Below are positions 7,144 through 9,489 of a stretch of DNA of 32,000 nucleotides, one piece after another. Under the pieces are notes generated by a model. The model was not told the origin of the DNA. It was given only the letters and a program-made list of their open reading frames with translations, and did no database searches. The stretch comes from an uncultured Clostridium sp. Its GTDB lineage: Bacteria > Bacillota > Clostridia > TANB77 > CAG-508. Location of the stretch: contig USHY01000002.1 in NCBI GenBank assembly GCA_900554635.1, forward strand, positions 1,823 through 33,822. The letters run 5' to 3'. A program made the translations under genes and the position numbers. Numbering within the stretch: the stretch's first letter is position 1; every line of letters begins with the position of its first letter.

Positions 7144-9489
7144 CTAATATCTGCTTTTCATTCTACTTAAAGTCTCGTTTACCTGACTTGAAAAGGGCTC
7201 CCTATTCTCATTTTTTCCACCAGAATAATTTTGCCTTCCAACTAATGGATATACCATATTTGCCAATTGTCTTAAAGATTCTAAAAATGTTTTTGTATAA
7301 CCATTTAGACTAATAGAACAATTTACTAATGACTCTAAGTATTTTATATAATTTTGCACTTCAAATGGTATTTCACAAAACATTATATTGTCTCTATCAA
7401 AAAGTTCTGTCATATATGTCATATTTGGTGAATTATAACAAGACATTCCCCCAATTAATGTTTTTACATTTAGATTTCTTACTCGCTCAGATTTGTTTAT
7501 TACTATTTTTAATTTTTCTGGAGCTAGTATTCCTTTTGATTTTAAATTTCTTAAAAATGCAGTAAGTGGTTGAATTGTTAAAACATCCATTGTTTGTACT
7601 AAATATATTTCTTGGGCTTTTGCAAATATTTCTGGATCTGTTTCAAAGTCTGTATCTATTAATACTGCTGAGTATCTGTTTAGTAGTGCAGTTAAAATAG
7701 TTTCTATTTTATAATCTCTTTCATCCCCTGGCATTTCTGTATAAATTGTTAGATTTTTATTTACCTTTATTCCTTCAGTTACTCCTCTTTGAAGATTATC
7801 CATACAATTTTTTGCAATATTTCTTAATTTTTCTTCATTGTTTGTATATATGTAATAAGCATTTTTAGATTTTGTCATATCCAATATTGCTGTTTCAATT
7901 CCCATGGAAGATAGCATTTCTGCTGTATTGTTTACTACAAATGATGTGCCATTTTTTGTGGTTCCAACAAATGCTACCAATTTTCTGTCACTAGTAAGTA
8001 GAGCATTAAAACTAGGGCTTGAGTAGTTACTTGTTGTTATAGAATTGTTTTCACTAAACATGTTGCTTGAATTAGTTTGTGGTTCTACAGGTCTTACATT
8101 TTCAATGTTGGTTGGCTTTATTGTTGGCTCTTCATGATGTTCTTCACGATGTTCTTCCTGCTCTTCTAATCCAAATAGGTCTGGTTCTTGCTCTTGATTT
8201 ATTTTTTCATCTTCCATATTGAACAAATCAACTTCTTGTTCAGTTTCTGGTTCATCAAGATTAAACAAATCAACTTCTTGACCTTTTTCCTCTTTTTCTT
8301 CATCTATTTCAAATAAGTTTGGTTCTTCTTGTTTTTGCTCTTCTATTTTCTCATTTTCCTCTGGCAATGGATTTTTTCTTGGTCTTCCCCTACCTCTTTT
8401 TGGTTTTTCTTCATCTACTTCTGGTAATGGATTTTTTCTTGGTCTTCCTCTGCCTTTTTTTGGTGGAATTATTGTTTCTTCTTTTTTTTCTGGTTCTTCT
8501 GCTTTTTCCTCTACTTTTTCTTCAATCTTAGGTTGAGTATTTTCTATTTTATTATGGTTATCTATATTTTCAACATCTACAATTGCGCTAGGCTTTATAT
8601 CTGGTTTTGCAACATTTGGTATTATTACTTTCTGAATTTTTTGTGTTTCTAATGATGTTGGTATAACTACTGATTTGATTGTTTTTGGTTTTGCAAAATC
8701 TCCAAGTAGATCTAGCCCTAGTTCATCATTTTCTTCTTTTTTTCTTATCTTGTCTTTATAACTTTCTGTTCTTCCTCTAGCATCAAATCCGTTTATTGCT
8801 GAATTTGTTACTAACTGTTGATATTTAGGTGATCTTTCTTCAAGTACGGCTTTTACATTCATTGGTAAGTATTTAATAATTATTTTTAATTGACTATCTG
8901 TATATTGTGATACTATGTTGTTAAAACTATCTATATACTTGTCTTCATTTTTACCAAGTCTTGCATAGTGTGCTCTTATGTTTTCAACTTCTGCTTCACT
9001 AACACTATTTTCACTATCATCATTTAATTCACTTTCATGAATCTCATAGTAAATTTTTGCACTTTCTTTATCTCTTGGTCTGTATATTAATTTGCATACT
9101 TCATCAATACTTCTGTCTTGGCCAATTATTGCGTTATATATACCAAGCTTATATAATTTTCCTAACATATCATCTGTTTTTCTTCTTCTATCAGCACAAA
9201 TTAATATTATATCTATCTTTTCATTATTAAGGCCTTTTGCTTCTTCTGCGATATTTGTATATTTATCTAGTAAAAATTTGTCTATTGAGCTATAGTTGTT
9301 GTTTGCAAATGGCTCTAGGTCTTCACTTATTACAACTCTACTATAACTTTTATCCTTTTGTAATTCTCTATATATTGCATTAAAATAATAAACATTTTTA
9401 TAAGATAATATTTCCTTATAATCTTTTTGATACTTTTTTACAATTGCATCTAAAACATTATCATTATTTACTGCAAATAAGATTTTCAT
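7144..9489 (-). CDS. multidomain protein: REC-like N-domain, two AT-hooks, acidic (D/N)LF repeats, degenerate ParA/MinD-like C-domain (CpaE/TadZ- or BcsQ-like layout)
   Basis: 781 aa. The N-terminal ~150 aa have a receiver-like pattern (MKILFAVNND, RVVISEDLEP, IDIILICA, KLGIYNAI). The middle carries KKGRGRPRKNPLPE and KRGRGRPRKNPLPE, followed by EPNLF, QEVDLF, QEVDLF and EPDLF. The C-terminal region reads LVAFVGTTKNGTSFVVNNTAEMLSSMGIETAILDM ... VLIDTD ... KIVINK, a ParA/MinD fold whose Walker A lacks the GK(S/T) lysine. Confidence 0.6.
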   Translation of the reverse strand: MKILFAVNNDNVLDAIVKKYQKDYKEILSYKNVYYFNAIYRELQKDKSYSRVVISEDLEPFANNNYSSIDKFLLDKYTNIAEEAKGLNNEKIDIILICADRRRKTDDMLGKLYKLGIYNAIIGQDRSIDEVCKLIYRPRDKESAKIYYEIHESELNDDSENSVSEAEVENIRAHYARLGKNEDKYIDSFNNIVSQYTDSQLKIIIKYLPMNVKAVLEERSPKYQQLVTNSAINGFDARGRTESYKDKIRKKEENDELGLDLLGDFAKPKTIKSVVIPTSLETQKIQKVIIPNVAKPDIKPSAIVDVENIDNHNKIENTQPKIEEKVEEKAEEPEKKEETIIPPKKGRGRPRKNPLPEVDEEKPKRGRGRPRKNPLPEENEKIEEQKQEEPNLFEIDEEKEEKGQEVDLFNLDEPETEQEVDLFNMEDEKINQEQEPDLFGLEEQEEHREEHHEEPTIKPTNIENVRPVEPQTNSSNMFSENNSITTSNYSSPSFNALLTSDRKLVAFVGTTKNGTSFVVNNTAEMLSSMGIETAILDMTKSKNAYYIYTNNEEKLRNIAKNCMDNLQRGVTEGIKVNKNLTIYTEMPGDERDYKIETILTALLNRYSAVLIDTDFETDPEIFAKAQEIYLVQTMDVLTIQPLTAFLRNLKSKGILAPEKLKIVINKSERVRNLNVKTLIGGMSCYNSPNMTYMTELFDRDNIMFCEIPFEVQNYIKYLESLVNCSISLNGYTKTFLESLRQLANMVYPLVGRQNYSGGKNENREPFSSQVNETLSRMKSRY
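8361..8480 (-). repeat. two tandem 60-bp units inside the 7144..9489 CDS, each encoding one AT-hook
   Basis: Segments 8361-8420 and 8421-8480 are near-identical over their first ~43 nt (ctggYaatggattttttcttggtcttccYctRcct...). Confidence 0.8.

Follow-up and report, generated by a model that had tools for sequence, protein, structure and literature searches.

ParA and MinD proteins are the main positioning machines of bacteria, and their mechanism depends on ATP-gated binding of DNA or membrane: classical ParA binds DNA only as an ATP dimer, and MinD binds the membrane only as an ATP dimer. AT hooks with an RGRP core, as in HMGA and CarD, bind the minor groove of AT-rich DNA. TadZ/CpaE are ParA/MinD-like landmark proteins which show an atypical receiver and a Walker A-like motif without the catalytic lysine, whose consensus in TadZ is K/RGGXGXS/T (bioRxiv 10.64898/2026.07.08.737194). 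Here, a gene whose product recalls all of these proteins is described in a stretch of 32,000 nucleotides, the window, from an uncultured Clostridium sp. (GenBank assembly GCA_900554635.1, contig USHY01000002.1, positions 1,823 to 33,822 of the forward strand). Its product, the hook protein, contains from the N- to the C-terminus a pseudo-receiver, a helical bundle, a presumably disordered linker that carries two AT hooks and a set of acidic repeats, a MinD/ParA-like pseudo-ATPase domain and a C-terminal helix. It belongs to an orphan subfamily among the MinD/ParA-fold pseudo-ATPases, set apart by its unique AT-hook linker and by a membrane module of its own. The function that we propose, a tentative reading which falls somewhat short of probable, is that of a static tether or hub between DNA and membrane, non-enzymatic and formed around a dead MinD/ParA-like core.

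Domain organization and distribution

The gene and the regions of its product are located in the window as follows:

7144..9489, minus strand: whole open reading frame (ORF), ATG start, 781 aa, with full-length orthologues found
9070..9489, minus strand: aa 1-140, receiver-like (βα)5 domain, from the AlphaFold2 (AF2) model, with a predicted local distance difference test (pLDDT) of 92.2, and Foldseek
8794..9069, minus strand: aa 141-232, bundle of short helices, from the AF2 model and Foldseek
8005..8793, minus strand: aa 233-495, variable low-complexity linker, presumably disordered
8428..8460, minus strand: aa 344-354, AT hook 1, KKGRGRPRKNP, from a sub-threshold Pfam AT_hook match and the family consensus
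8368..8400, minus strand: aa 364-374, AT hook 2, KRGRGRPRKNP, from a motif script and the family consensus
8346..8464: tandem duplication of 60 nt, 2.0 copies, 86% identical, encoding both hook units
8155..8334, minus strand: aa 386-445, four acidic-hydrophobic repeats, from a motif script and the clade consensus
7234..7992, minus strand: aa 500-752, MinD/ParA/FlhG-fold (SIMIBI P-loop) domain, from AF2 and Foldseek, with the fold itself at residues ~494-746
7942..7965, minus strand: aa 509-516, degenerate Walker A, GTTKNGTS, from the motif script, the CapB alignment and the hhalign register
7147..7194, minus strand: aa 766-781, conserved C-terminal helix FSSQVNETLSRMKSRY, from the AF2 helix and conservation

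A preliminary description of this DNA, made from its letters alone, had listed the two hooks, the four acidic repeats and the GTTKNGTS loop, and had placed them in an AT-rich setting; all of these motifs were recovered by script, and the GC content of the window ranges from 25 to 33% throughout. The large minus-strand ORFs examined in the window are ordinary chromosomal genes, and a promoter and terminator scan stays at chance level in such AT-rich DNA. Pfam and NCBIfam scans of the 781-aa protein show no REC, ParA or CpaE family, and contain only a sub-threshold AT_hook match and noise; a PDB sequence search with the single protein gives no match. The folds were assigned from AF2 structures predicted from alignments of diverse relatives, A2 for the C-terminal domain and A3 for the N-terminal region.

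A search of 1.84 billion cluster representatives shows relatives in 572 clusters at E<=1e-3 and in 210 clusters at E<=1e-30. The full-length proteins among the 150 best matches have the same layout of N-terminal domain, variable linker and C-terminal domain, and the source names looked up for 17 sequences in 10 clusters include no named protein. With one genome scanned for each GTDB species, relatives were detected in 406 species. The best 80 of these 406 species are without exception represented by metagenome-assembled genomes of uncultured gut Clostridia or Clostridium sp., including CAG:452 and CAG:508, which we take to belong to the GTDB order TANB77. The loci of these 80 species and four distant loci without hooks (L081-L084) constitute the sample of 84 loci in which the gene neighbourhood was analysed. 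Literature searches for AT-hook with Clostridium or sporulation, and for AT-hook with ParA-like or nucleoid, found no description of such a protein.

MinD/ParA-fold domain and degenerate Walker A motif

The AF2 model of the C-terminal domain (pLDDT 89.2, predicted TM-score (pTM) 0.83) shows 234 PDB matches at E<=1e-3 in Foldseek, the top hits having a target TM-score (TMt) of 0.63-0.73. The leading matches are Borrelia ParA 5tvk (1.3e-8), FlhG 4rz3 and Chlorobium ParA 3ea0 (TMt 0.73), and others among the leading ones are FlhG 4rz2, MinD 4v02, 1hyq and 3q9l, and Soj 2bek. The ParA/MinD-like fold named in the preliminary description is thus borne out, with a pLDDT of 89 and ParA, MinD, FlhG and Soj matches at E values down to 1e-8. 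At the sequence level, Pfam CbiA (the CobQ/CobB/MinD/ParA nucleotide-binding domain) gives weak matches in 20 of 30 relatives (best E 3.9e-6), and the window protein itself matches no curated CbiA, ParA, AAA_31 or MipZ model above threshold. The best sequence-profile match of the C-terminal domain in the PDB is a weak one to the CapB tyrosine kinase (E 0.016), whose alignment pairs knGtsF with GAGKST and vvllDcD with FVIIDTPP. An NCBIfam scan of 30 C-terminal domains for a named subfamily gave no consistent answer, with weak matches to bacterial tyrosine kinase (BY-kinase, in six of the 30 members), Hda and MobB models.

The register of the Walker A region is ungapped and was anchored by hhalign of NTAEMLSSMGIETAILDMT against residues 22-40 of MinD, with which the CapB alignment agrees. 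This hhalign comparison of the C-terminal domain profile with E. coli MinD aligns 19 columns and is useful for the register only. The equivalences are:

G509: MinD G10
T510: MinD K11, the signature lysine
K512: MinD G13
G514: MinD G15
T515: MinD K16, the Walker A lysine
S516: MinD T17, the Walker A Ser/Thr, with the serine retained

Both lysines of the deviant Walker A motif, xKGGxxGK[ST], are therefore missing at their canonical places, which are occupied by T510 and T515, in a domain which shows the SIMIBI MinD/ParA fold. The preliminary description was right that the GK(S/T) lysine is absent, since T515 stands there and GK[ST] never occurs in the family; its statement that the signature lysine is present does not hold, because that place is taken by T510 and K512, two positions off the signature site, corresponds to a glycine. 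Across 124 C-terminal domains the loop reads FVG[TA]xKxGT[ST]F and never GK[ST]. Since the Walker A lysine is replaced family-wide, the loss of normal ATPase chemistry is a reasonable inference, and normal ATP hydrolysis by a domain without these lysines is unlikely. Invariant residues in the 30-sequence alignment are D537 (switch I, where the second Asp is Thr), D612 and D614 in the Walker B region, and N665, which sits in an hhhNK strand as in the hhhN[KR] of MinD and FlhG.

MinD and FlhG are among the best overall fold matches of this domain and share with the hook protein the hhhN[KR] strand and a basic-hydrophobic C-terminal tail. Unlike them, the hook protein has lost both Walker A lysines, has no MinC/MinE or flagellar neighbours, contains added N-terminal domains and a putative DNA-binding linker, and shows a sequence similarity below curated thresholds.

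AT hooks in the variable linker

The linker varies widely in length and content among orthologues; in the window protein, the fragment between aa 331 and 460 contains 28.5% Glu, 10.8% Lys and 11.5% Pro, with a net charge of -22. Inside it, the hook sequences PPKKGRGRPRKNPLPE (RGRP at aa 347) and KPKRGRGRPRKNPLPE (RGRP at aa 367) both show the RGRP core with basic flanks and proline which characterizes the AT-hook motif (PF02178). The Pfam AT_hook score is 14.6 bits against a cutoff of 17.4, a shortfall that is common for a 13-residue model. The KRGRGRPRK of hook 2 is identical to what we take to be the first hook of human HMGA1. As in HMGA and the myxobacterial CarD, the RGRP core is flanked by Lys/Arg and Pro and lies beside a strongly acidic region; different from them, the hook protein has two hooks and not three or four, lacks a CdnL/RNA polymerase-interacting module, occurs in Clostridia, and has its hooks set between a receiver-like and a MinD-like domain.

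In the six-frame translation of the window, the only RGRP tetrapeptides are the two hooks. A wider RGRP search, as suggested in the preliminary description, covered 85 related loci (1.04 Mb); of the 163 copies in open segments of 80 aa or more, 162 fall in orthologues of the hook protein. Exactly two RGRP hooks are found in each of the 81 species-level orthologues (44-100% identity), with the consensus P-K-[RK]-[GRK]-R-G-R-P-[RK]-K and a hook-to-hook spacing of 20-23 residues in 72 of them. Relatives at 30-38% identity do not have hooks, and their linkers are rich in Glu, Lys, Ala and Gln and look like charged helices. The preliminary description had considered that orthologues without hooks would make the motifs an accident of lineage; within the hook-bearing clade their number, sequence and spacing are conserved, and the hooks are therefore a conserved gain within the family and not a low-complexity accident.

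This bears on the explanation that only the folded domains matter and that the hooks and acidic repeats, as low-complexity parts of a spacer, have drifted without function. Such drift would agree with the great variation of linker length and composition, with acidic repeats that differ by clade, with the origin of the hooks by a 60-nt duplication and with the hook-less deep members. Nevertheless, all 81 species keep two hooks, an invariant RGRP core and a constrained spacing, the Arg, Gly and Pro codons of the hooks run against the 28% GC composition, and RGRP is found nearly nowhere else in the 1.04 Mb; we regard drift as extremely unlikely. The two hook units are 86% identical in DNA, and the pair is present in orthologues down to 44% protein identity, which suggests concerted evolution or a strong codon-level constraint on the hook units.

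Receiver-like N-terminal region

The most compact Foldseek matches of the N-terminal domain are the N-terminal domain of CpaE, 4n0p (TMt 0.61-0.71, root mean square deviation (rmsd) 3.3-4.1 Å), Spo0A, DivK and ComE. With a pLDDT of 92 and matches to response regulators and to the CpaE N-terminal domain, the REC-like domain of the preliminary description stands at the fold level, so that the structure predictions which it had proposed for the terminal regions support both folds. No match of this domain to Pfam Response_reg (PF00072) was found, hhalign against CheY gave no alignment, and a PDB search with the N-terminal domain profile found nothing. The Asp, Thr/Ser and Lys of the PF00072 active-site quintet are lacking: Glu56, in VISE, is located at the inferred position of the phospho-acceptor Asp, as mapped by eye from predicted strand ends; Cys98 is found in place of Thr (CheY Thr87), and no Lys follows β5, as mapped by predicted strands. 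The strand-end VISE56 is comparable to what we presume to be the acceptor motif VISD57 of CheY. On this model, the N-terminal domain would be an aspartate-less pseudo-receiver. It resembles the aspartate-less receiver (ALR) domains, which have a (βα)5 fold without the acceptor Asp (PMC4395418), an invariant Glu being located here at the inferred position, and differs from them in the lack of a Response_reg match and in its fusion to a MinD-like domain through the AT-hook linker.

When the N-terminal region is compared in full length, the top Foldseek matches are NarL/LuxR-type regulators, RcsB, VraR, LiaR, DesR and EvgA, whose alignments cover 233-257 columns with an rmsd of 10-17 Å and a TM-score of about 0.4. 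The helical bundle of aa 141-232 may be a degenerate helix-turn-helix (HTH)-like domain, a nature which is a hint only, because the rmsd of these matches is above 10 Å; sequence-level scans detected no HTH family in the N-terminal region. From these matches arises the explanation that the protein is an architectural transcription factor, in which a NarL-like receiver, an HTH-like module and the hooks remodel promoters while the MinD-like domain oligomerises or regulates, with hooks and acidic region paralleling what we take to be the arrangement in HMGA and CarD. We consider it very unlikely, given the large deviation of the NarL/LuxR superpositions and the lack of a sequence-level HTH match; moreover, the co-conserved partners are membrane proteins and the N-terminal region is equally conserved in members without hooks.

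Taken as a whole, the hook protein is most like TadZ/CpaE in its working parts, a pseudo-receiver and a MinD/ParA-fold pseudo-ATPase: in both, a non-phosphorylatable receiver-like N-terminal domain is followed by a MinD/ParA fold which lacks the Walker A lysine and keeps the Ser/Thr, and the presumed role is that of a scaffold or landmark and not of a motor. Of four characters compared, the atypical receiver is shared, and three are not: the motif, in a domain whose fold does agree, the locus and the match to curated models. The G-[TA]-x-K-x-G-T-[ST] of the hook family matches the G-X-S/T end of the TadZ consensus without its K/R-G-G part, and no CpaE/TadZ model of Pfam or NCBIfam matches the window protein or 30 relatives. 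In addition to the parts shared with TadZ/CpaE, the hook protein has the helical bundle, a linker of about 260 aa with hooks and acidic repeats, and the C-terminal helix.

Acidic-hydrophobic repeats

The four repeats of the window protein are EPNLF (aa 391), QEVDLF (aa 407), QEVDLF (aa 421) and EPDLF (aa 437), and their consensus in the clade of the window is E-[VI]-[DN]-L-F-[NDS]-[MLI]-[ED]-E (487 repeats). The DLF repeats are found in 3-8 copies in the closest 36 species and in two or fewer beyond them. Sister clades show instead, in the same acidic context, [ED]3-x-x-L-P-G-[FLM]-[DE]-[DE] (261 instances), and hybrid repeats such as LPGLFEEIE are present in relative P0168 and DLLDLDDD repeats in relatives P0150 and P0233. 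The linkers of sister clades, as read in relatives P0140, P0125, P0131, P0144, P0151, P0139, P0168, P0150 and P0233, contain up to about 28 copies of LPGF[DE][DE], LIPGLDD, LPGMD, LPGLFE and DLLDLDDD. Common to all clades is a short stretch of hydrophobic residues within an acidic tract, present in many copies, a pattern that is typical of multivalent docking motifs. The [IL]-P-x-F core of the sister-clade repeats loosely recalls what we take to be the FtsZ C-terminal peptide and the SSB tip.

The preliminary description had compared the repeats with the clamp motif QL[SD]LF. The L-F part of the comparison stands; its first position does not, being Glu in 393 of 487 repeats (81%) and not Gln, nor does conservation among orthologues, since the sister clades differ. 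Binding to the β-clamp is therefore unlikely as a conserved role, because the DLF repeats are clade-specific and carry Glu where Gln is expected, and a β-clamp tether was rejected as such a role, the DLF motif not being kept across clades.

C-terminal tail

At the end of the AF2 model, a disordered stretch is followed by a helix (aa 769-780). Members of the hook clade keep the tail pattern FSxxxNxTLNKMKxxY, and distant members end instead in KKGLFG, KKFFG, RRGIFG or GGFWRK; the KKGLFG-type endings resemble what we take to be the membrane-targeting sequence of MinD. F766, V770, L774, M777 and Y781 lie on one helical face of the tail, which is possibly membrane- or partner-binding.

Gene neighbourhood

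In the 80 species the gene order is conserved: a protein with a signal peptide and two transmembrane helices (2-TM protein), the hook protein, a transmembrane pseudo-GGDEF protein, IreB and RuvX. The hook gene is mostly separated by 3-5 nt from the gene upstream and by 6-34 nt from the one downstream. The tight module that the hook gene forms with the genes of two membrane proteins, and the conserved C-terminal tail, go beyond the preliminary description. The genes concerned are located as follows, those with the prefix L in the distant loci without hooks:

9494..9895, minus strand: upstream partner, 133 aa, signal peptide and two transmembrane helices around a short basic loop
6040..7128, minus strand: downstream partner, N-terminal transmembrane helix, middle region and GGDEF fold with RYMGPKF
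L081:4091-4531, L083:5405-5953, L084:5595-5996 and L082:296-994: 2-TM partner
L083:13481-14284 and L084:12876-13685: Spo0A, about 5 kb downstream of the hook-less relatives

The stop codon of the upstream partner is 4 nt ahead of the start codon of the hook gene. This partner adjoins the hook gene in 79 of the 80 loci, the exception being a contig end, and is directly upstream in all four distant hook-less loci, whose relatives show 33-38% identity. Its conserved motifs are YSIPxCF...GxRKLDxKxxGFG...QVLPLIFAIVV. A Pfam scan of ten orthologues of this partner found no consistent family, and one of the ten shows a sub-threshold match to T4SS_pilin (E 0.015). Its topology recalls VirB2/TrbC-type pilins.

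The pilin-like match and the fold layout are the grounds for an explanation in which the hook protein is a TadZ/CpaE-type landmark: it would label a site in the cell and bring an envelope machine to it, the 2-TM protein being a pilin-like or machine subunit and the hooks a secondary addition. The layout is the same, an atypical receiver and a MinD/ParA-like domain without the Walker A lysine, the CpaE N-terminal domain is the most compact structural match, and TadZ has a Walker A-like consensus of its own. No tad/cpa, min, par or flagellar genes are found in the 80 species loci and the four distant loci, however, and tadA/cpaF, secretin, prepilin peptidase and flp genes are absent from all 84; no CpaE/TadZ hidden Markov model matches, the K/R-G-G part of the motif is absent, and the T4SS_pilin match is single and sub-threshold. 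The CpaE/TadZ layout that the preliminary description had seen is thus upheld in fold and not in locus (0 of 84 with tad/cpa genes) or family models. A landmark function of this type is unlikely, though it keeps a place among the candidates; TadZ orthology was rejected, as there is no tad locus. In place of a tad locus, the genomic partners of the hook protein are the 2-TM protein and the transmembrane pseudo-GGDEF protein.

In the downstream partner, RYMGPKF aligns to RFGGEEF and does not vary among the 80 orthologues, the GG[DE]EF signature being absent; to judge from this motif, the GGDEF-fold protein is catalytically dead. Its middle region, of about 160 aa, matches no family. The end of the gene overlaps ireB by 10 nt, and its start overlaps nothing. 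It is present in the 80 species loci and in the distant L082, and absent from L081, L083 and L084, which keep IreB-RuvX-DUF1292 downstream. Because the distant hook-less loci keep the 2-TM gene, mostly without the GGDEF-like gene, the likely order of events is a core pair of 2-TM and MinD-like protein, to which the GGDEF-like gene and then the hooks would have been added. Two of the four distant loci contain a PBP5-type carboxypeptidase gene upstream and Spo0A within 6 kb, and since Spo0A lies in those loci, the L083 and L084 lineages carry the sporulation master regulator. A mobile element or defence island was rejected, the housekeeping synteny being stable across the 80 species.

A GT2 glycosyltransferase gene (EpsU-like, E 1e-45) is located two genes upstream of the hook gene in the window, an arrangement limited to the nine closest species, and further genes of sugar pathways lie nearby. 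The gene between GreA and GT2 (11278-11958, minus strand) encodes a protein of the SSB family that shows two OB-fold matches (NCBIfam PRK05813, E 1.8e-96); it adjoins GT2 only in the same nine closest species. The sugar-pathway genes and the pseudo-GGDEF gene raise the possibility of an exopolysaccharide or cyclic di-GMP (c-di-GMP) scaffold, similar to BcsQ/BcsE or to a pseudo-BY-kinase with its adaptor, which positions or regulates a glycosyltransferase. BcsQ resembles MinD/ParA, and in BcsE both REC and GGDEF domains are present in degenerate form. The adjacency of the transmembrane pseudo-GGDEF gene in 80 of 80 loci, the CapB profile match and the weak BY-kinase matches mentioned above are in line with such a scaffold, which we judge quite unlikely: GT2 adjacency occurs in only nine of 80 loci, the GGDEF-like gene is missing beside three distant members, the 2-TM protein has no Wzz/PCP domain, the lack of a Tyr cluster and of the Walker A lysine means that there is no kinase, and the AT hooks are left unexplained. 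A BY-kinase as such was rejected, with no Walker A lysine, no Tyr cluster and no Wzz adaptor.

Proposed function

The DNA-to-membrane tether or hub proposed for the hook protein builds on what is directly supported, the folds, the motif losses, the conserved number and spacing of the hooks and the three-gene module. From these we infer that the protein binds DNA, associates with the membrane, no longer hydrolyses ATP and contacts its partners, as well as what it does in the cell. The protein would be hard-wired at both ends, in place of ATP-gated binding. At the DNA end, two HMGA-type hooks about 21 residues apart in the disordered linker would hold the minor groove of a chromosome of about 28% GC. 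The membrane end would be provided by the upstream 2-TM protein, the downstream membrane-anchored pseudo-GGDEF protein and, possibly, the C-terminal amphipathic helix of the hook protein itself. The acidic-hydrophobic repeats would be multivalent docking sites for a client. Overall, the protein would form a fixed link between chromosome and membrane, or a static positioning hub, and not an ATP-driven gradient.

Several observations weigh against such a tether. The hooks are missing from the deeper branches of the family, and DNA tethering therefore cannot be its ancestral role. The C-terminal domain still has S516, D537, D612/D614 and N665, so that nucleotide binding, with a possible regulated dimerisation, is conceivable. 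With about 12 residues, the cytoplasmic loop of the 2-TM partner offers little surface for direct contact, the hydrophobic moment of the C-terminal tail is equalled by 4-14% of shuffles, so that its amphipathic character is statistically weak, and the synteny with ireB and ruvX may simply be an inherited gene order.

In a more specific form of the tether, a whole order-level lineage of uncultured, low-GC gut Clostridia would use a dead MinD-derived chromosome-to-membrane tether for the work that Noc or RacA do in Bacilli, either nucleoid occlusion or the anchoring of origins during division or sporulation, and the acidic LPGF/DLF repeats would recruit a client from the division or replication machinery. 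This form is on balance improbable, although worth considering. The likeness to Noc and RacA of Bacilli is a functional analogy only, one polypeptide serving for DNA and for membrane or a membrane complex. Their folds, ParB-like in Noc and HTH in RacA, are unrelated to that of the hook protein, and their binding is site-specific, whereas the AT hooks are of low specificity.

If the tether reading is true, a MinD/ParA fold without both lysines and with AT hooks would be a different route, in which attachment to the surface is hard-wired, and the hook protein would be a rare example among Firmicutes of HMGA-type hooks that are well conserved. The family, unnamed, present in at least 406 species-level genomes of uncultured gut bacteria and without a match to a curated model, would offer, along with the two membrane partners, a concrete handle on chromosome or envelope organisation in these bacteria.

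Other features of the window

Four further minus-strand ORFs, 24432-25730, 23984-24367, 12672-13529 and 1262-2119 (432, 127, 285 and 285 aa, respectively), have no match in Pfam at the thresholds applied. Three genes of the window look frameshifted, which may point to sequence errors in the assembly. For the split DNA polymerase I gene, the alternatives are a frameshift pseudogene and an error of assembly. The three genes, all on the minus strand, are distributed as follows:

15685-18355, minus strand: DNA polymerase I, split in 17993-18355 (120 aa, 5'-3' exonuclease N-terminal domain) and 15685-17847 (720 aa, remainder)
25856-27217, minus strand: radA/sms, apparently broken into four ORFs that overlap or adjoin, 26891-27217 (Zn ribbon), 26506-26946 (AAA_25/KaiC), 26250-26585 (no match) and 25856-26164 (Lon_C/ChlI)
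21225-21819, minus strand: DUF1016/YhcG PDDEXK nuclease, split in 21430-21819 (N-terminal domain) and 21225-21500 (C-terminal domain)

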